A stretch of DNA of 39,056 nucleotides from Eubacteriales bacterium. Lineage in GTDB: Bacteria > Bacillota > Clostridia > Oscillospirales > CAG-272. Both the position numbers and the translations under genes were made by a program. The stretch is taken from positions 1 through 39,056 of the forward strand of contig JAZNOQ010000160.1 in the NCBI GenBank assembly GCA_045589215.1, given 5' to 3'. Shown here one piece after another: positions 7,376-16,578 of the stretch (position 1 is its first letter; each line of letters starts with the position of its first letter). The notes beneath the pieces are model-generated. The model saw nothing but the letters and a program-made list of their open reading frames with translations, was not told the DNA's origin and made no database searches.

Positions 7376-8617
7376 ATGAATACGACCGAAGCACCTGCGA
7401 AAGTGCAGGAGAAACCGATCTCAAACCCGAAGAAAAAACGAAGGTGGATCAAGCTCCGCCACCGCATCGTCCGTGTGATCGCCTATCTCATTCTGAAGCC
7501 GATCTCGCGGCTGAAATACGGCATCAAGATCGAGCCTCTTCGAGACAAAAGGCAGTTCACGATCCTGCTAAACCACCAGACACCGTTTGATCAGTTCTTT
7601 GTCGGAATGGCATTTCCGCGCGTGATCTACTACGTCGCGTCCGAGGATATCTTCTCGAACGGCTTCGTGTCGTCCCTGATCCGTTTTCTCGTTGCCCCCA
7701 TCCCGATCAAAAAGCAGACCACCGACCTCCGTGCGATCAGGACCATCCTATCGGTTGCCAAGGAAGGCGGCTCGATCGCGATCGCGCCCGAGGGAAACCG
7801 CACCTACAGCGGAAGGACCGAATATATGGCTCCGTCGATCTCATCGCTCGTGCGCCGCATGAAGCTACCTGTTGCCCTTTTCCGCATTGAAGGCGGTTAC
7901 GGCGTTCAACCGCGATGGGCAGACGGAACGCGGAGAGGCAAGATGCGCGCTTACGTTACCCGCATCATCGAGCCCGAGGAATACGAAGGTCTTACGGACG
8001 ACGAGCTGTTTTCCGTCATCCGAGAGGGGCTATACGTAAACGAGGCTGTGCCGAGCGGCATTTACAAAAGCAAACGAAGCGCTGAATATCTCGAAAGAAT
8101 GCTTTACGTCTGTCCGTTTTGCGGATTTTCGCGTTTTGAGAGCCACGGAGACACGGTCACGTGCATGACCTGCGGAGAGAGCGTTCGCTATCTCGAGACG
8201 AAGGAGCTTTCTGCCACTGCGCCGAGGTTTCCCTTCCACTTGATCTCGGAATGGTATGACTATCAGAAGGATTTCGTAAACGCGCTCGACCTAATGCAGT
8301 ACACCGAAGTGCCGATCTTCACAGACACGGCAAGCGTTTCGGAGGTCATCGTGTGCAAAAAGAAAAAGCGGATCGCAAAAAACGCGCCCGTCGCGCTTTA
8401 CGGAGACCGCGTCGAGATCGGGGAGATGTCCGTTCCCTTTTCACTTGCATCCGCCTTCACCGTGCTTGGACGAAACAAGCTCAACATCTACTATGAGGGA
8501 AGGATCTATCAGCTGAAGGGCGACAAACGCTTCAATGCGCTGAAATACGTACATCTTTATCACAGATACAAGAACTTATCCAAAGGAGACGGCAATGGAA
8601 AATTTTTGGGACTTTAA
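7376..8617 (+). CDS. PlsC-family lysophospholipid/1-acylglycerol-3-phosphate acyltransferase with a C-terminal Cys4 zinc-ribbon domain
   Basis: NHQTPFD is the HX4D acyltransferase motif, and IAIAPEGNRT is motif III. CPFCG...CMTCG forms a zinc-ribbon. GAAGGAGG serves as RBS. Confidence 0.75.
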   Translation: MNTTEAPAKVQEKPISNPKKKRRWIKLRHRIVRVIAYLILKPISRLKYGIKIEPLRDKRQFTILLNHQTPFDQFFVGMAFPRVIYYVASEDIFSNGFVSSLIRFLVAPIPIKKQTTDLRAIRTILSVAKEGGSIAIAPEGNRTYSGRTEYMAPSISSLVRRMKLPVALFRIEGGYGVQPRWADGTRRGKMRAYVTRIIEPEEYEGLTDDELFSVIREGLYVNEAVPSGIYKSKRSAEYLERMLYVCPFCGFSRFESHGDTVTCMTCGESVRYLETKELSATAPRFPFHLISEWYDYQKDFVNALDLMQYTEVPIFTDTASVSEVIVCKKKKRIAKNAPVALYGDRVEIGEMSVPFSLASAFTVLGRNKLNIYYEGRIYQLKGDKRFNALKYVHLYHRYKNLSKGDGNGKFLGL

Positions 8618-9977
8618 GGTCTGGGGCAGCATCATCCTTTTTTCGGTTCTGCTCGCAAGCCTTCTTGCAGGTAACATACTCAGAAAAACGATCCCCTTTC
8701 TCAAAAAATCGCTTATCCCCACATCGGTGATCGGAGGCGTTCTCCTGCTCATTGTCGCAGGTGTTTATAAGGCGATCACGGGTGACGTATTCTTCGAAAC
8801 GGCGGCATTTGGCGGCAACGGAACGACAAACCTTGAGATCCTGACCTATCACACCCTCGCGCTCGGGTTCATCGCATCGACGTTCAAGACCTCCGAGGGC
8901 AAGCTGACGAAAAAGCGCACATCCGAGATCTTCAACACGGGCGTCACAACGGTCTCGACCTACCTGCTTCAGGCGATCTTCGGGCTCGTGATCACGATGA
9001 TCGCGGCACTCGTCGTGAAGGATTTCTTCTCGGCGGCGGGTATGCTTCTTCCCTTCGGCTACGGTCAGGGCACGGGGCAGGCGATGAACTACGGCAATAT
9101 TTACGAGACCGAGCACGGCTTCATCGGCGGCAAGAGCTTCGGACTTACGATTGCGGCTCTCGGCTTCCTATCGGCAAGCCTCGGCGGTGTACTGCATATG
9201 AATATTATGAAACGCCGAAACAAGCTGAAGCTGGCAAAAGCCTACGGCAAGTCCCTCAGAACCGAGGACATTGAAGCGCAGAACGAGATCCCGATGCAGG
9301 AAAGCATCGACAAGATGACGATCCAGATCGCCCTGATCGCGTTCGCCTATCTGCTCTCGTACCTTTTGATGTACGCACTCGGACGCCTCTTGCCCGGAAT
9401 GCGCGCCGTGATCTACGGCTTCAACTTCCTCCTCGGCGTTCTCTCGGCGACGCTCGTCAAGGCAGTATTGAATTTCCTGCGAAGAAAATCGGTCATCAAG
9501 AAGGAATACACAAATAATTTCCTGCTCACGAGAGCAAGTAATTTCTTCTTCGATATTATGGTCGTTGCGGGCATTGCGGCGATCCGCCTCGATTATCTCG
9601 AGCGCTACTGGGGCATCATGCTGATCCTCGGCGTTGTCGGTATGATCATTACCTATGTCTACAACCGCATCGTTGCGAAAACGCTCTTCCCCGAATACGC
9701 AGAGGAGCAGTTCCTCATGATGTACGGCATGCTGACGGGAACGGCGAGCACGGGCATCATCCTGCTGCGCGAGGTCGATGGCGACTTCAAGACGCCCGCG
9801 TCGGACAACATGGTATATCAGAACTTTCCCGCGATCGTGTTCGGCTTCCCCTTAATGTTTCTCGCAACCCTTGCGCCGACGAAGCCTGTCTTAACGCTCA
9901 TCGCCGTTACGGTATTCTTCATCGTTATGAATATCATTCTGTTCAGAAGCTTTATCTTTAAAAGGCGGAAGAAATAA
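8595..9977 (+). CDS. polytopic membrane transporter, GltS-like (sodium/glutamate symporter family)
   Basis: About 10-12 hydrophobic segments are present. The N-terminus and the GYGQGTGQA loop resemble the GltS GGHGTGAA region. This family assignment is from memory only. Confidence 0.5.
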   Translation: MENFWDFKVWGSIILFSVLLASLLAGNILRKTIPFLKKSLIPTSVIGGVLLLIVAGVYKAITGDVFFETAAFGGNGTTNLEILTYHTLALGFIASTFKTSEGKLTKKRTSEIFNTGVTTVSTYLLQAIFGLVITMIAALVVKDFFSAAGMLLPFGYGQGTGQAMNYGNIYETEHGFIGGKSFGLTIAALGFLSASLGGVLHMNIMKRRNKLKLAKAYGKSLRTEDIEAQNEIPMQESIDKMTIQIALIAFAYLLSYLLMYALGRLLPGMRAVIYGFNFLLGVLSATLVKAVLNFLRRKSVIKKEYTNNFLLTRASNFFFDIMVVAGIAAIRLDYLERYWGIMLILGVVGMIITYVYNRIVAKTLFPEYAEEQFLMMYGMLTGTASTGIILLREVDGDFKTPASDNMVYQNFPAIVFGFPLMFLATLAPTKPVLTLIAVTVFFIVMNIILFRSFIFKRRKK

Positions 9978-10069
9978 CCCAAAAAGAAAAGGGGCTGCGT
10001 CAAAAGCGTGATGCTCTTATCGGAGAAATCACATAGCGTAAATTTGCTCCGCAGTAAACAAATAATTAA

Positions 10070-10106
10070 CGCCGACAGATTTTCAAAGTCTGTCGGCGTT
10101 TTATTT
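10070..10106. terminator. bidirectional intrinsic terminator between the transporter gene and the RAYT-like gene
   Basis: A perfect 10-bp stem, cgccgacaga/tctgtcggcg (10070-10079 / 10089-10098), is followed by ttttattt on the plus strand. The minus strand has a T-rich stretch after it as well. Confidence 0.75.
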
Positions 10107-10175
10107 ATTCGATAAATCTGTTTTATCGCCAGTTTCGCCTCTGTATTACAAACGCGCCTGACATAGCCCATACCC

Positions 10176-10712
10176 TTATTCTTCGGTGTATAATTCATCG
10201 TAGTACCATCGGAGGGGATTTTCGCAAATATACCGCAAATGCTCATCGTAATCTTGACGGTTACGGATAATATGGTCGTGAAAGCGAGCCTGCCAAATGT
10301 TTTCACAGTATTCCTTGTTGCAAAAACGCTTAAATGTCGATACAAACTGCGAACACGCGCTATTCGCTCTCTCAACGTTTGTAGGGACAGGCGTCCTCGA
10401 CTGTCCTTGATCGGTCGAATTTTTGGTTTCCTTCACCCAAAGCAAAAGGTGAATATGGTTGGGCATGATTACATACCCTTCAACCGACAAATGATTGTAG
10501 AAATCATTTAGTTGCCGGATGTATTTATCTGCAATTTTTCCATATTGGGTCAATTCTGTTTGCGGACAGTCGAGGACGCCTGTCCCTACAATGCGAGATA
10601 AAAGCGGTCGTCTGTTTTGCGTACAGATCGTTATAAAATATGCGCCGACACTACTGTAATCAAAGCTTTGATATCTTGGCGTTCTTCTATTTTTTAATTC
10701 CTCCATTTCCAT
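10176..10712 (-). CDS. HUH Y1 transposase-like protein (IS200/IS605 TnpA superfamily, REP-associated tyrosine transposase-like), solitary
   Basis: YFITICTQNRRPLL...YVIMPNHIHLLL contains the HUH motif (HIH). WQARFHDHIIRNRQDYDEHLRYICENP is the C-terminal Tyr helix. The start is moved to M29 of the track ORF because a promoter sits inside the longer ORF. One 60-nt line of this gene counted at 40% G+C. Confidence 0.8.
   Translation of the reverse strand: MEMEELKNRRTPRYQSFDYSSVGAYFITICTQNRRPLLSRIVGTGVLDCPQTELTQYGKIADKYIRQLNDFYNHLSVEGYVIMPNHIHLLLWVKETKNSTDQGQSRTPVPTNVERANSACSQFVSTFKRFCNKEYCENIWQARFHDHIIRNRQDYDEHLRYICENPLRWYYDELYTEE
10379..10406. repeat. arm A of a 28-bp perfect inverted repeat inside the RAYT-like ORF
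   Basis: ttgtagggacaggcgtcctcgactgtcc is the exact reverse complement of 10564-10591. The arm contains its own hairpin (ggacag-N10-ctgtcc) and encodes GQSRTPVPTN on the minus strand. Confidence 0.95.
10564..10591. repeat. arm B of a 28-bp perfect inverted repeat inside the RAYT-like ORF
   Basis: ggacagtcgaggacgcctgtccctacaa. It is read on the minus strand in a different frame from arm A, giving IVGTGVLDCP. Confidence 0.95.
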
Positions 10713-10722
10713 CACCCATTCT

Positions 10723-10751
10723 ATTATATCACAAATCGGCCGAGGAATCAA
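10723..10751 (-). promoter_or_regulatory. promoter of the RAYT-like gene (TTGATT-17-TGaTATAAT), giving a very short or absent leader
   Basis: The minus strand reads TTGATTcctcggccgatttgtgaTATAATagaatgggtgATG. The -10 ends 10 nt before the ATG at 10712. Confidence 0.5.
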
Positions 10752-11814: not shown

Positions 11815-12612
11815 TTACTTTTTCAGTTCAAGCGTGCGCTTGTACGCCGCCAATACGGCGTCCATCGCGGCATTCCGCATACCGCCCGCTTCAAGGGCGT
11901 GAACACCTGCGATCGTCGTCCCGCCGGGACTGCACACAGCGTCCTTCAGGTCACCCGGGTGTCCGTACTCGAGAAGCATTTTTGCCGCCCCGAGAAGGGT
12001 CTGCGCCGCGTATACCGCCGCCTTGTCGCGCGGAACACCGCACTCGACCGCTCCGTCTGCGAGCGCCTCGGCAAAGAGATATACGAACGCAGGGCCGCAG
12101 CCCGAGATCGCACTGCCCGCATCGATCATACCTTCGGGGATGCAGTCAAACCGTCCTGCCGCCGAAAAGGCGTTGAGGAAGGTCTCCACCGCATCCGCCG
12201 TAACACCGTCAGCGGTGTAAAGGATCATACCCTCGCCGACCATTACAGGTGTGTTCGGCATAATACGGATCACGGGAAGCCCTGCTCCAATGTACGAGCG
12301 GATCGCCGCGATCGAAAGTCCCGCCGCCATCGTGATAACGGTGACGCCTTTGCGCCCCGAAAGCTTGTCCGCAAATTCCGCGATGCCGCTCGCCATATAC
12401 TGTGGCTTGAGCCCAAGCACGACGAACGCGGCGTTCTCTGCGATGTCAAGCGCTGTGGTCGGCACGACGCCGCACTCCGATGCGAGCACCGAGGTTTTCG
12501 TTTCGTCTCGGTCGCAAACGGCGATCTCGGTGCCCGAAAGCGTTTTTGCCGCCGCACGCACGAGTGCGCCGCCCATATTGCCGCAACCGATAAATCCAAG
12601 CGTGTATTTCAT
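11815..12612 (-). CDS. proC: pyrroline-5-carboxylate reductase
   Basis: From the internal ATG at 12612 the protein reads MKYTLGFIGCGNMGGALV, a Rossmann GxGxxG. SPGGTTIAGV appears near the C-terminus. The track ORF extending to 12786 overlaps proA and is rejected. Confidence 0.9.
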   Translation of the reverse strand: MKYTLGFIGCGNMGGALVRAAAKTLSGTEIAVCDRDETKTSVLASECGVVPTTALDIAENAAFVVLGLKPQYMASGIAEFADKLSGRKGVTVITMAAGLSIAAIRSYIGAGLPVIRIMPNTPVMVGEGMILYTADGVTADAVETFLNAFSAAGRFDCIPEGMIDAGSAISGCGPAFVYLFAEALADGAVECGVPRDKAAVYAAQTLLGAAKMLLEYGHPGDLKDAVCSPGGTTIAGVHALEAGGMRNAAMDAVLAAYKRTLELKK

Positions 12613-12677
12613 AATTGTCTCCATATTTCTCGTGTTTTGCGTGGAATTCTTTTGATTCGCGTATCCTCTGACGATGC

Positions 12678-13937
12678 TTACCGCACCTGACCGTCGCCCG
12701 TAACGATATATTTGTACGAGCAGAGCTCCGTAAGCCCCATCGGACCGCGTGCGTGCAGCTTTTGCGTCGAAATGCCGATCTCGCATCCCTTGCCGAACTC
12801 ACCGCCGTCGGTGAATCGCGTCGAGGCGTTGACGTATACCGCCGCCGAATCAACGGCACGGGTGAAGGTATCGATCGCTACGTCGCAGTGCGATACGATG
12901 CAGTCACTGTGATGCGTCGAATGCGCTCCAATGTGCGCGACCGCCTCATTCACGTCCTTCACGACCTTCACGGCAAGAATATAATCAAGAAATTCGGTAT
13001 CAAAATCATTCTCTCCCGCAGGCACGCCGCCGATCACGGCAGACGCCCTTTCGTCACAACGGAATTCAACGGGGGGAAGTCCCTTCTCCGCGCGGTCATC
13101 TGCAAGACGCTGCTTCAGCATCGGCAGGAATTCATCCGCAACCTTTTCGTTTACAAGGCAGACCTCTGCGGCGTTACAAACCGACGGACGGCTCGTTTTC
13201 GCATTTTCGACGATGGCGAGCGCCTTGTCAAGATCGGCGGTCTCGTCGACGTAAATGTGACAGATACCCGTTCCCGTCTGAATGCAGGGCACGCGCGCGT
13301 TTTCAATGCAGGCACGAATCAAGCCCGCACCGCCGCGCGGAATGAGCGCGTCGATATATCCAACCGCAGTCATAAGATCGGTCGCACTTTGCCGCGACAC
13401 GTCCTCGATCATATTGATGAAATCCTCGCAAAGCCCGCATTCGCGGAGTGTCTCGCGAAGCACCGAGACGATCTCGTAAGACGTTCGGAAGGCTTCCTTT
13501 CCACCGCGCAAAACGCAGACGTTTCCGCTCTTGAAGCAAAGCACGCCCGCATCCGACGTTACGTTCGGACGGCTCTCGTAGATGATACCGATCACACCGA
13601 GCGGAACGCGCACCTTACGAATGCTGAGTCCATTCGGAAGAGCACTCGATTCGAGCACGCCGCCGAGGGGATCCTCAAGGGCTGCGACCGAGCGAATACC
13701 GTTTGCCATTCCCTGAATGCGCTTTTCGTCAAGGCGCAATCGGTCGACCATCACGTCTCCGATCTTTTCGCGGGCGGCTTCGACGTCAAGAGCGTTCGCT
13801 TCGAGGATGCGCCTGGTGTTCTCTTCAAGTGCGTCCGCCATTCTCAGCAGTGCCGCGTCACGCTTGTCCGTATCAAGCAGCATCAGCTGAGGTGCCGCTT
13901 TTTTTGCTCTTTCGAGTATTTCCTGTGTCGTTTTCAT
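12678..13937 (-). CDS. proA: glutamate-5-semialdehyde dehydrogenase (gamma-glutamyl phosphate reductase)
   Basis: IYESRPNVT...VLRGGKEA...[11 protein letters not shown]...HSTHHSD...NASTRFTDG are canonical ProA blocks. Confidence 0.93.
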
Positions 13938-13982
13938 ATCCTTTTCCTTTCGGGACCGTGTCCCCTATAAAGCGGCAGAGCC

Positions 13983-14750
13983 TTAGTCTTTGTAAAACCG
14001 CGTGTATCCCTTGCCCTTCCCCTCGATGATATCGTAAAGGAATTCGGGATCCTCGCCGTTTGCGATCACAAGATCGCACCCTTCACCGTTACAGATCTGC
14101 GCCGCACGGAGCTTCGTCCGCATACCGCCCGTTCCGAGTGCCGATCCCTCTCCGCCCGCAAGCGCGAGGATCTCATCGGTCACGCCGTGGACCTCTTCGA
14201 TGAGTCTGGCATTTTCGTCCTTCCTCGGATCTGCCGAATACAGTCCCTCAACGTCCGAAAGGATCACGAGAAGCTCGGCGCCGATGCTGACCGCAACAAG
14301 CGCAGACAGCGTATCGTTGTCACCGACCTTGATCTCCTCCGTGGCGATCGTGTCGTTTTCATTGATGATCGGAAGCACCCCGAGCTCAAGGAGACGCTTC
14401 ATCGTATTGCTGAAATTCTCATGACGCTCCTCAGAGGTAAAATCCGAGCCCGTAAGCAGGATCTGTGCTACCGTGTGGTTCTGTTCGGTGAATAGATCAT
14501 CGTAAACGTACATCAATTCACACTGTCCGACCGCTGCCGCCGCCTGTTTTGTCGGAATATCGGTCGGCTTCTCGAGGAGTCCGAGCTTACCGACGCCCAT
14601 ACCGATTGCGCCCGACGAAACGAGGATCACCTCGTGTCCCTCGTTTTTGAGATCGCTGATGACGCGGCAAAGCGCGGTCGTGCGGCGAATATTGAGCCGT
14701 CCCGTGGCGTGTGCCAGAGTCGACGTTCCTACCTTGATTACTACTCTCAT
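13983..14750 (-). CDS. proB: glutamate 5-kinase, short form without a PUA domain
   Basis: VIKVGTSTL...VSSGAI..G...NENDT...DNDTLSA...SDVEGLY...GTGGMRTKL are ProB amino-acid-kinase motifs. The 255-aa length implies there is no PUA domain. Confidence 0.9.
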   Translation of the reverse strand: MRVVIKVGTSTLAHATGRLNIRRTTALCRVISDLKNEGHEVILVSSGAIGMGVGKLGLLEKPTDIPTKQAAAAVGQCELMYVYDDLFTEQNHTVAQILLTGSDFTSEERHENFSNTMKRLLELGVLPIINENDTIATEEIKVGDNDTLSALVAVSIGAELLVILSDVEGLYSADPRKDENARLIEEVHGVTDEILALAGGEGSALGTGGMRTKLRAAQICNGEGCDLVIANGEDPEFLYDIIEGKGKGYTRFYKD

Positions 14751-14868: not shown

Positions 14869-15933
14869 TCAATAATTCCGATAAGACTTTTCCGCAAGAT
14901 ATGCGTCGATCAGCTGCTGTATGCCGCGCATATCGGCCTCCGACTGAAAAATTGCGTCGAAATTCGTCGTTGCCTCTTTGTAGGTGTAATATTTGTATAT
15001 GAAATTCATAAAATTGAACTCGGTACTAATCCGTATGTCTCCGCAGAAGGAATAATCCTGCCCGACCGCGCTTTCGCCCGTTATCGCACAGTAGATCGAC
15101 AGCGTAGTAATGTAGCCCGTCAGCATATTGGGGTGATAACCGTCATCTGCGCTCTTACGGACGATAAAGCTGTTCTGGTCGTATGTCTGCTCAGCGCCCG
15201 GCACGGTAATGTCTCCGCGAATGAGCCCGTCCACAAGGCCGCCCCAATCGACGATGGTAACGCCCTTTTCCTCAAGCTCATCCAGCATAGAAAGCCACAG
15301 GTAATCATTTTCGTGCGCTCGTCTGGCAATGTGAAAAATAAATTTCACATTTTCGTTTGCCGCCTTAAAAACATCCATGACCTTTTGGCAATTTTCGAGG
15401 AATCCCTCTTCCGATTTGCTTCCGTACTGCATCACGACGTAATCAAAGGAGCGATCCGTGAGATAGCTGAGATGGTCCTTGCCCTTACAGCTGCTGTCCA
15501 CGCCGCATTTCACGAAAAGATCGGTAAAGCCGTGACTTCCGAAGGTCCAATTCGTAACCGAGACCTCAGCGCCGTTCGATCGGCAAAGCTGATAGAAATA
15601 GCCCCGGTCGTTGCTCCGCTCCTCCTGTGTAAGCACCTTTGTGCCTTTATCAAGAACAGCCTTTCCGTAATAGTTATGCGAATTTCCAATGAAAATGATC
15701 TTCTTTCCGTCAAGCGGGTGCACTGCTCCGGTGCCCTCCGTTTCGTCGTCTTCGGATTCATTCCCCGAGTCGTCTTCCTCTCCGTCCGTGGTGTCGTCTC
15801 CACCCGTGGTATCATCCTCGTCGGAGGGAATCATGCTTTCCTCGGCTTCACCGGCACCGGAAACATCGTCACATGCGCTAAAAGCGCAAAGACAGATGAT
15901 AAGAGCCAAGCATAACGCCAAAAGTTTTTTCAT
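14869..15933 (-). CDS. secreted lipoprotein with an acidic linker and an SGNH/DUF4886-like domain
   Basis: The lipobox is LCAFSAC within MKKLLALCLALIICLCAFSAC. A D/E/T/G-rich linker follows. IIFIGNSHNYYG and DGYHPN resemble SGNH-type hydrolase blocks. Confidence 0.6.
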   Translation of the reverse strand: MKKLLALCLALIICLCAFSACDDVSGAGEAEESMIPSDEDDTTGGDDTTDGEEDDSGNESEDDETEGTGAVHPLDGKKIIFIGNSHNYYGKAVLDKGTKVLTQEERSNDRGYFYQLCRSNGAEVSVTNWTFGSHGFTDLFVKCGVDSSCKGKDHLSYLTDRSFDYVVMQYGSKSEEGFLENCQKVMDVFKAANENVKFIFHIARRAHENDYLWLSMLDELEEKGVTIVDWGGLVDGLIRGDITVPGAEQTYDQNSFIVRKSADDGYHPNMLTGYITTLSIYCAITGESAVGQDYSFCGDIRISTEFNFMNFIYKYYTYKEATTNFDAIFQSEADMRGIQQLIDAYLAEKSYRNY

Positions 15934-16048
15934 CTTTCATCCTCGCTTTTACTTGTAGGACATCAAGCACTTCCGTTTCATTATACACCATTTTTGCGGG
16001 GTTGTCAATCTCTTTTCCGAAAATACGGTGATACACGATAATATGGTA

Positions 16049-16076
16049 GGGCTGTCTCACATATGTGAGACAGCCC
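16049..16076. terminator. perfect 28-nt palindrome downstream of the DUF4830 gene; probable terminator lacking a clear U-tract
   Basis: gggctgtctcacatatgtgagacagccc forms a 12-bp stem. It lies 17 nt after the stop of the minus-strand gene. Confidence 0.45.
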
Positions 16077-16092
16077 CTTCGAATACCGCTGA

Positions 16093-16578
16093 TTATTTCC
16101 CCTCAAGCCCGCAAATGAAGCCGCTGACGTCCGCAGAGCAGATGTCGGCGCCGATCACGCGGTTACGGTAGAGCAAGAGGTTGACGTAGACCGTCCCCTC
16201 GTACCCCTCGTAGTTCGTGATCTCGTAGGTATAGCGCATTACGGTCTTCTTTTTGTACTTCGAAAGATCAAAGCCCTGCTCCTTCTGAAGCTCATTGTAT
16301 GCGGCGAACACCTTGTCAAAATCCGACGGGATCGTCACCTCAGCCTCTGCGACGACAGCGTCGGCGGTCTCCCACCCAAACTGCGCGAGGAAGCTCCTCC
16401 GATCGGCATCACTCTTGATCTTTGTGTAATTGTATGCCACCTCTCCCGCGACCGTTCCGTCCTCTGTGGTAGCGGCATAGGTCGGCACGAAGACGATCAG
16501 AAGCACGAGTGTGGTAAGTGCAAGCGCAACGACGGCAAAAAATTTCGCGGTGCTCGCCCGAAACGAATATACAAACAT
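16093..16578 (-). CDS. DUF4830-like membrane-anchored protein
   Basis: An N-terminal TM segment is followed by FLAQFGWE...IPSDFDKVFAAYNELQKEQGFDLSKYKKKTVMRYTYEITNY. I recognise this pattern as DUF4830, from memory. GGGAGG RBS is present. Confidence 0.6.
   Translation of the reverse strand: MFVYSFRASTAKFFAVVALALTTLVLLIVFVPTYAATTEDGTVAGEVAYNYTKIKSDADRRSFLAQFGWETADAVVAEAEVTIPSDFDKVFAAYNELQKEQGFDLSKYKKKTVMRYTYEITNYEGYEGTVYVNLLLYRNRVIGADICSADVSGFICGLEGK

Follow-up and report, generated by a model that had tools for sequence, protein, structure and literature searches.

Background

Repetitive extragenic palindromic sequences (REPs) that flank the genes of REP-associated tyrosine transposases (RAYTs, also referred to as TnpA_REP), an arrangement known as the REPtron, and the paired REPs known as REPINs are both well described (PMC3333891, PMC3116915). 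Biochemical data on the TnpA_REP proteins of Escherichia coli, Stenotrophomonas maltophilia and Marinomonas indicate that these enzymes bind the single-stranded REP but not the inverse REP, need the GTAG tag, and cut at CT or CA near the hairpin (PMC8266576). REPs within the RAYT gene itself have also been published. According to Quentin, Siguier, Chandler & Fichant 2018 (PMC6006769), tnpA_REP genes of subclass 2.4 contain in-frame REP insertions, which lie within a variable beta3/alphaC insertion, generally located between the HUH motif and the catalytic tyrosine and probably of little effect on activity. The same study equates subclass 2.4, described as abundant in Cyanobacteria and Bacteroidetes, with RAYT Group 4 of Bertels et al. 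2017, who regarded Group 4 RAYTs as not REPIN-associated. Here we describe a RAYT-like gene on the minus strand of a 39,056-nt stretch of DNA (hereafter the window; contig JAZNOQ010000160.1 of assembly GCA_045589215.1) from a bacterium of the Oscillospirales, which contains a perfect 28-bp inverted repeat around its HUH codons, and we consider it very probable that the two arms of this repeat are in-frame, oppositely oriented copies of one GTAG-tagged REP.

As far as the published description of subclass 2.4 goes, the gene is like its members in encoding a Y1 HUH RAYT and in having a GTAG-tagged REP with the G-C foot of the stem directly behind the tag (for example GTAGGGACAGACTTTATGTCTGTCC in Table S1 of that study). 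The in-frame REP of the beta3/alphaC region occupies the place of the gene-distal arm found here, and double-foot REPs are present in distant relatives of our gene. It is unlike subclass 2.4 in that a second, inverted REP stands at a fixed place upstream of the HUH motif, in the beta1/alphaA loop, in 61 of 85 homologous genes, and in belonging to a large clade of gut Clostridia in which the arms evolve with their hairpins preserved. A placement of the gene in subclass 2.4 would be founded on the REP type (GTAG followed by a stem that opens with GGG or GGA) and on the intragenic REP trait, both judged from sequence and from the description of the subclass. As the occurrence of REPs inside tnpA_REP genes has already been published, what is presented here is a new and very large Clostridial member with a differing architecture; in the literature searched, we found no description of the gut-Clostridia clade, of a second REP upstream of the HUH motif, or of intragenic evolution that preserves hairpin and tag.

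The best match of the encoded protein in both sequence and fold is TnpA_REP of the E. coli REPtron (structure 4ER8; Ton-Hoang 2012, PMC3333891; Messing 2012, PMC3479197; PMC8266576), with which it shares the catalytic tyrosine and the GTAG contacts, and the E. coli substrate, a GTAG tag plus hairpin on single-stranded DNA, is of the kind seen in the arms. In E. coli the gene has REPs on its outside, with a bulge in the hairpin, whereas here perfect short hairpins lie inside the open reading frame (ORF). The arms resemble the REPs of S. maltophilia (group 3), which consist of GTAG, an 8-bp stem and a 3-nt loop (PMC8266576).

Two REP copies within a RAYT gene

The gene-distal arm (TTGTAGGGACAGGCGTCCTCGACTGTCC, Table 1) is the exact reverse complement of the gene-proximal arm at 28/28 positions, 157 nt away, and together they constitute the longest and best inverted repeat within the window. 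The longest non-overlapping perfect inverted repeat with a span of up to 1 kb was these 28 nt, versus a mean of 12.2 nt and a maximum of 15 nt in 40 shuffles, and a search of the window for the 22-nt core of the arm, tolerating up to 3 mismatches, gave these two sites and no others, where 0 occurrences are expected. Each arm by itself also forms a hairpin with a 6-bp stem (DNA free energy −6 to −9 kcal/mol), and the G+C content of the arms (61%) contrasts with that of the coding sequence without them (40%). The arm unit can be written as TT-GTAGGGACAG-N10-CTGTCC-G. Positions 10563-10592 code for IVGTGVLDCP (residues 41-50), with GTA GGG specifying a conserved Val-Gly, while positions 10377-10406 code on the sense strand for GQSRTPVPTN (residues 103-112), with C CCT AC specifying a conserved Pro-Thr. 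An earlier note on this DNA, made from the letters of the sequence, had given the repeat with its 157-bp gap, had put the length expected by chance at about 15 nt, and had placed both arms within the ORF on either side of MPNHIHLLL, with these two peptides, a hairpin in each arm, and GC-rich arms in a gene of which one 60-nt line counted at 40% G+C; all of these observations proved correct. Its leading proposal, that an HUH/Y1 gene holds its own substrate-like hairpins, is supported by the finding that the arms are GTAG-tagged hairpins of the type bound and cleaved by RAYTs (PMC8266576).

Table 1. Features of the RAYT locus, with positions in the window
Feature	Position	Strand	Remarks
Terminator-like hairpin, 15-bp stem and T-run	10068-10100		Separates the 3′ end of the RAYT gene from the convergent ORF 8595-9977(+); consensus match only
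RAYT / TnpA_REP-like Y1 HUH gene	10176-10712	-	178 aa, ATG at 10712, stop at 10176-10178; from the ORF and from profile and fold relatives
Codon of the predicted catalytic tyrosine, Y161 in RYICENP	10230-10232	-	Aligned to Y115 of E. coli TnpA_REP; invariant in alignment A2
Gene-distal arm	10379-10406	+	REP copy with GTAG on the plus (antisense) strand
Spacer, 157 nt	10407-10563	-	Codes for helix alphaA, strand beta2 and the HUH strand (MPNHIHLLL at 10440-10466)
Gene-proximal arm	10564-10591	-	REP copy with GTAG on the sense (minus) strand: TT-GTAG-GGACAG-GCGTCCTCGA-CTGTCC
Promoter-like site TTGATT-17-TATAAT with TG	10723-10751	-	Just upstream of the ATG; consensus scan only

The only close relative of the protein in the PDB was 4ER8, the complex of E. 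coli TnpA_REP with a REP hairpin (E 8.5e-7 by phmmer and 1.6e-12 by profile search), and the TnpA proteins of IS200/IS605 ranked behind it in sequence, profile and fold searches alike. An AlphaFold model of the protein (pLDDT 86, pTM 0.80) likewise had 4ER8_A as its top Foldseek match (E 5.8e-8, TM 0.56/0.60). The HUH motif MPNHIHLLL comprises residues 83-91 and is located on a strand of the model at residues 86-93, with H86 and H88 invariant in alignment A2, and Y161 is placed in helix 152-171; its E. coli counterpart is the residue changed in the catalytic mutant Y115F (PMC8266576). The residues listed in PMC6006769 as contacting GTAG in E. coli TnpA_REP (W94, Q95, E100, H101 and R104) correspond by alignment to W140, Q141, D146, H147 and R150, and the change from E to D at the third of these is found in subclasses 2.5 and 2.7 as well. 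Based on the match to 4ER8 in sequence and fold, together with the conservation of Y161 and of the GTAG-contact residues, the gene is taken to encode a RAYT/TnpA_REP-type Y1 HUH enzyme.

Both arm peptides (about 9 aa) are insertions relative to 4ER8. In the AlphaFold model the gene-proximal peptide forms the tip of an extra beta-hairpin in the beta1/alphaA loop (residues 43-50, between strands 39-42 and 51-54), and the gene-distal peptide belongs to a coil modelled with low confidence (residues 94-114), which leads from the HUH strand, beta3, to helix 115-135, alphaC. As modelled, the REP arms in these two surface loops together bracket the HUH strand.

The intragenic REP pair in homologous genes

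The protein family is large, with at least 7,977 matches in a word-indexed protein search and 17,924 cluster representatives in an exhaustive search (E ≤ 0.001). DNA was sampled from 80 homologue loci (L001-L080), mostly metagenome-assembled genomes (MAGs) of Oscillospirales and other Clostridia, while Chloroflexota, Bacteroidota and other phyla contributed a few, and in each locus the best inverted repeat flanking the HUH codons was sought. Homologues also occur in isolate genomes, such as those of Gemmiger formicilis DFI.6.10 and Ruminococcus flavefaciens SAb67 (L027, L030). About 60 genes had an HUH-bracketing repeat of 23-39 nt, the arms being roughly 100-280 nt apart (median about 145). 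Every one of these arms opened with GTAGGG, with 0 differences in 60 genes × 2 arms (120 arms), and the upstream tag was without exception translated in the frame GTA GGG (Val-Gly), the downstream tag mostly in the frame C CCT AC (Pro-Thr). The tag was followed by a perfect or near-perfect hairpin with a stem of 6-9 bp (stem/loop sizes of 6/10, 8/3, 8/4, 9/4 or 8/6), the sequence of which was lineage-specific. The peptides encoded by the arms varied accordingly by lineage, yet they can still be back-translated to reverse complements, as in VGVGALDDP/GSSRAPTPT and VGRGILDAP/GASRMPRPT. At the DNA level this holds in 60 genes and bears out a remark in the earlier note, that homologues in other Clostridia have differing peptide pairs which are again complementary at the DNA level. 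A back-translation test on 109 representatives, which had low power, gave 0 forced mismatches in 29/109 own pairs and in 6/218 cross-pairings, with own and cross-pairings overlapping at ≤1 mismatch.

When the 85 HUH ORFs were classified by the position of their REPs, the 61 genes with both intragenic REPs had the ‘+’ copy 87-192 nt before the HUH codons and the ‘-’ copy 25-126 nt after them. In eight others the ‘-’ REP follows the HUH codons and the ‘+’ partner is located in the 5′ flank; these include genes from Chloroflexota, Dehalococcoidales, Flavobacterium and others, with two of the loci being Clostridia MAGs (L041 and L053) and six non-Clostridia (L061, L077, L052, L071, L074 and L068). 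The remaining genes had only the ‘-’ REP after HUH (6/85), only an intragenic ‘+’ REP before HUH (2/85, L067 and L080), only flanking REPs (4/85) or no REP (4/85). In total, 75/85 genes, the window gene included, have a ‘-’ REP 25-126 nt after HUH, and in 69/85 the 5′ half of the gene, up to and including the HUH codons, is flanked by an inverted REP pair. Some distant relatives carry double-foot REPs inside the gene (L063, L068 and L073).

Similarity between the arms of different genes tracked the similarity between the proteins, with a Spearman coefficient of 0.30, and some arms were 100% identical between genes in which the remaining protein was only 44-48% identical. In several homologues the arm units have been amplified in tandem and in frame (P0062, P0044, P0001, P0012 and P0080; L001 at 8586/8619; L152; L104), for example as 5 × TGVLDCPSV or as repeated GQSGTPVTD, resulting in proteins of 168-233 aa in one close family. 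Pairs of paralogues within about 2.5 kb of each other were seen in L006 (8882-9418 and 9989-10510), L027 (9995-10501 and 11550-12068) and L014 (7571-8050 and 9980-10552); in L006 and L027 each paralogue carries a different REP type inside, and the tandem paralogues of L006 share 61% protein identity but have unrelated arms.

Structure maintained in the arms

Covariation was analysed in an alignment of 16 genes of the 8/3 hairpin class. Of the cells in the local hairpins 98.3% were paired, and their covariation score was 0.73, which 0/500 shuffled alignments reached (0.19 in shuffles), whereas the long-range 23-bp helix between the arms was paired in 95.9% of cells, with the unpaired cells clustering at the inner stem positions. 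Stem differences between the two arms of one gene comprised 15 within-arm compensatory double changes, 2 single wobbles and 2 breaking changes, and the 15 double changes keep the hairpin of each arm and break the complementarity between arms; it is precisely at the sites of these differences that the long-range helix loses pairs. The second arm moreover had 13 G·T and 0 A·C pairs on its own GTAG-bearing (antisense) strand, which correspond to A·C mismatches in the mRNA. With 15 such changes against 4, the constraint appears to act on each local GTAG hairpin on its own DNA strand and not on the 28-bp duplex, and the perfect complementarity between the arms is a by-product of two identical REP copies standing in opposite orientation. 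We therefore rejected the notion that selection maintains a long-range duplex of RNA or DNA, as differences between the arms are compensated within and not between them.

Dispersal of the arm sequence outside genes

When each homologue locus was searched for the 22-nt core of its own arm (≤3 mismatches), 24 extragenic copies were found in 920 kb of sequence, distributed over 19 of the scanned loci and some of them arranged as inverted doublets, where by our own calculation about 1e-4 copies per locus are expected by chance. The exact 26-mer of the window, GTAGGGACAGGCGTCCTCGACTGTCC, is present in at least 120 metagenome contigs (the matching contigs are numbered L081-L200). Among the contigs listed, and with ≤3 mismatches allowed, 129 copies were located away from any RAYT match and 30 inside RAYT genes; weak tblastn matches at L087, L171 and L192 stem only from the arms themselves. 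The extragenic copies read as examples are set in A+T-rich sequence, and the edges of the extragenic copies follow the pattern TT-GTAGGG...CC-G, with T at -2 in 67%, T at -1 in 84% and G at +1 in 82%. In the window, the gene-proximal arm conforms at both edges, and the gene-distal arm conforms at the TT but is followed by T at +1. Extragenic copies often formed inverted doublets with unrelated spacers of 34-240 nt, several metagenome contigs (e.g. L138, L196 and L086) contained two or three GTAG-REP families side by side, and some RAYT genes had further REP copies just upstream or just past the stop codon. The dispersal in the loci of relatives and in metagenomes identifies the arm sequence as a genuine REP family. 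Many of the listed single 26-mer matches were located no more than about 50 nt from the end of their contig, which is what a repeat that interrupts short-read assembly would produce.

Possible role of the intragenic REPs and alternative explanations

By analogy with characterised TnpA_REP enzymes, each arm would fold as a single-stranded hairpin on the strand that bears its GTAG, and the folded arm would be bound by the encoded protein and cut at a nearby dinucleotide; the gene would thus contain, once on each strand, a substrate for its own product. Tolerance of the insertions would follow from their coding for the tip of a beta-hairpin and a disordered loop, and the arms would stay REP-like as members of a REP population serviced by the RAYT, a likeness that may be kept up either by selection or by homogenisation driven by the RAYT or by recombination. 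Tentatively, and with doubts prevailing, we suggest that the enzyme and its cognate REP are inherited as one unit, possibly with autoregulation in cis by binding of the protein to its own gene. A more specific version, in which the inverted REP pair around the HUH codons is a selected cis-element and not just a tolerated insertion, supplying resident ‘seed’ copies of the substrate so that enzyme and REP specificity are inherited and transferred together, and in which the RAYT, by binding or cutting the gene that encodes it, would restrain its own expression or activity, we consider unlikely.

Several observations weigh against the interpretation of the arms as REP substrates of the encoded enzyme. 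The binding and cleavage of the arms are carried over from homologous proteins, and the near-identity of the arms could result from gene conversion rather than selection. A Pfam profile search with the protein returned no family at E ≤ 0.01, PF01797 (Y1_Tnp) included, and its score against the NCBIfam model NF047646 (REP_Tyr_transpos; 68.4 bits, E 5.9e-19) does not reach the cut-off of 80; scores against curated profiles are plausibly lowered by the two loops that are inserted in comparison with canonical RAYTs. Some homologues have intact ORFs without one or both intragenic REPs, which implies that the REPs are dispensable for the protein and may be functionless passengers. In L010 both intragenic REPs are in the ‘-’ orientation (10166-10191 and 10325-10350) and hence form direct repeats, with a third copy just past the stop codon, so that the inverted arrangement is not obligatory. 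Finally, no extragenic copy of the arm was found in the 39-kb window, and REP dispersal in this particular genome can only be presumed from relatives and metagenomes; the suggestion in the earlier note that the arm might be dispersed like a REP accordingly held for the loci of relatives and for metagenomes, but not within the window itself.

The foremost alternative is that the arms are such passengers, REPs that landed once in two permissive loops and have persisted there, homogenised with the dispersed family but unused by the protein. We regard this as a serious contender, if short of an even chance, and within our confidence in the identity of the arms a real function and a pure passenger status each take up roughly one third. 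Besides the arm-less homologues, the location of the arm peptides in a hairpin tip and a disordered coil is in keeping with it, as is the judgement on subclass 2.4, in PMC6006769, that the insertions are peripheral and probably without effect on activity. The tandem amplification of arm units and the 61%-identical paralogues with unrelated arms, which suggest replacement, point in the same direction. Passengers would, however, hardly be expected at the same two positions and in the same orientation in 61/85 genes, with an unchanged GTAGGG in 120 arms and with those changes that do occur preserving the hairpins, or as arms that are 100% identical between such divergent proteins. Furthermore, relatives that lack the inner left REP often have a copy in the 5′ flank instead, by which the HUH half of the gene is still enclosed in an inverted pair.

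A DNA switch, in which recombination between the arms flips the HUH segment, or the RAYT excises it, and the enzyme is thereby turned off, as a means of self-limitation or phase variation, is very unlikely. The perfect 28-bp inverted repeat speaks for such a switch, as does the enclosure of the HUH-coding part by an inverted REP pair in most homologues, and double-foot REPs, which are present inside some relatives, could arise by deletion between an inverted REP dimer, as noted by Quentin et al. (PMC6006769). On the other hand, 28 bp is short for RecA-dependent inversion, and the coding orientation and an intact ORF were retained in all 61 genes with the bracket and in the metagenome RAYT copies with a single tblastn match that covered the protein largely or entirely. 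No inversion or deletion (double-foot) allele of the HUH segment was found among the homologue loci and metagenome contigs, which leaves the invertible on/off segment raised in the earlier note without an allele to speak for it, although this is a weak test, because these are consensus assemblies, which hide rare subpopulations.

An RNA element, in which the transcribed arms form either a 28-bp duplex with each other or two hairpins that control translation or stability, for instance by RNase III-dependent autoregulation, has still less to recommend it. The predicted fold of the mRNA is indeed dominated by the 28-bp stem (-120.7 kcal/mol, z = -9.7), and REPs elsewhere act as stabilisers of RNA (Di Nocera 2013, PMC3733652). 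Yet the within-gene arm differences described above break the long duplex and keep the local hairpins, contrary to the long-range mRNA duplex with RNase III processing that had been put forward in the earlier note, and the G·T pairs of the second arm make sense on the antisense DNA strand but not in the transcript. In addition, the left REP is located in the 5′ flank or absent in relatives, the arm sequence is dispersed in intergenic DNA in both orientations, and an Rfam scan of the window matched no family. Conservation at the protein level only, with peptides kept for protein function and an incidental complementarity of the DNA, has a negligible chance of being correct: VG...P and G.S..P.PT are conserved peptide patterns, but the conserved residues are precisely those coded by GTAGGG, the peptides differ by lineage while the complementarity is kept, and the same nucleotide sequence occurs in non-coding DNA.

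Relation to REPINs, insertion sequences and other intragenic palindromes

The REP pair shares with REPINs (Bertels & Rainey 2011, PMC3116915) the presence of two inverted REPs, and extragenic doublets with variable spacers are common in the present family. REPINs have a short non-coding spacer and are thought to move as a unit, whereas the spacer here is 157 nt long and coding, and the pair is therefore REPIN-like in geometry only. The possibility that the dispersed doublets are copies of the entire unit of arm, spacer and arm (a ‘master REPIN’) was rejected, as their spacers are unrelated to the 157-nt coding spacer; none of the dispersed doublets contains that spacer, which shows that this part of the gene does not spread in the manner of a REPIN.

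Elements of the IS200/IS605 family (TnpA of IS608 and ISDra2) have in common with this gene the HUH/Y1 fold and sub-terminal hairpins with a 5′ guide tetranucleotide that are recognised on single-stranded DNA, but the end hairpins of these elements stand on either side of the gene, both on one strand, and the whole element is present in multiple copies, while here the hairpins are inside the ORF and on opposite strands. There is no second copy of the gene in the window, its neighbours are housekeeping genes, and the locus does not qualify as an element of this family. The intragenic REPs and Rickettsia palindromic elements of Di Nocera et al. 2013 (PMC3733652) are similar in being in-frame palindromic insertions whose short loop peptides are tolerated; those insertions are sporadic and affect unrelated genes such as uvrA and recB, in contrast to the clade-wide conservation in the gene of the cognate enzyme seen here.

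Since each gene of the clade spells out its own cognate REP twice, the probable substrate can be read from the gene alone, and the at least 7,977 relatives could provide a very large natural set of RAYT-REP pairs for studies of hairpin recognition and co-evolution, where recognition has so far been approached one system at a time (PMC8266576). The data also place GTAG-REP/RAYT systems with dispersed REPs in gut Clostridia, the literature searched covering mainly Proteobacteria, Cyanobacteria and Bacteroidetes. For annotation it is of relevance that genes of this family receive no Pfam domain and are named ‘hypothetical’ or ‘transposase’, and that tandem arm units change the length of the protein. 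The gain is thus one of scope and detail and does not involve a new principle.

Genomic surroundings

Judged from the sequence, the gene probably starts at the ATG at 10712, the upstream TTG that opens the 206-aa mechanical ORF being an improbable start. A similar layout of TATAAT, ribosome binding site and ATG was found in homologue L121. The hairpin at the 3′ end of the gene is likely to be a terminator shared with the convergent ORF, as suggested by its stem and T-run. The minus-strand neighbours at 11815-14750 resemble a proline biosynthesis cluster of the proB/proA/proC type, with a pyrroline-5-carboxylate reductase, a ProA-like protein of the aldehyde dehydrogenase family and a ProB-like amino acid kinase, and these housekeeping neighbours indicate an ordinary chromosomal setting for the RAYT with no obvious mobile element. 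A comparison of gene order with relatives, intended to judge vertical inheritance, gave no informative conserved neighbourhood.

The G+C content around the gene is low (43% in a 1-kb window versus about 55% in neighbouring windows; 40% versus 54% for the ORF without arms). The same was seen in all 58/58 loci analysed, where RAYT ORFs without their arms averaged 11.5 G+C points below their flanks (38.5% versus 50.0%) and correlated with them at r = 0.85, and recent horizontal transfer was accordingly rejected as an explanation specific to this window. The G+C content of the arms across loci was about 70%.

One further GTAGGG-tagged perfect palindrome, the only one in the window besides the arms, is located at 16046-16075 on the plus strand (GTAGGGCTGTCTCACATATGTGAGACAGCCC; 11-bp stem, 4-nt loop). 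Situated in the intergenic gap that separates ORF 14869-15933(-) from ORF 16093-16578(-) and lacking a flanking T-run, it shows no sequence relationship with the RAYT arms; it may represent a different REP family with a single copy.

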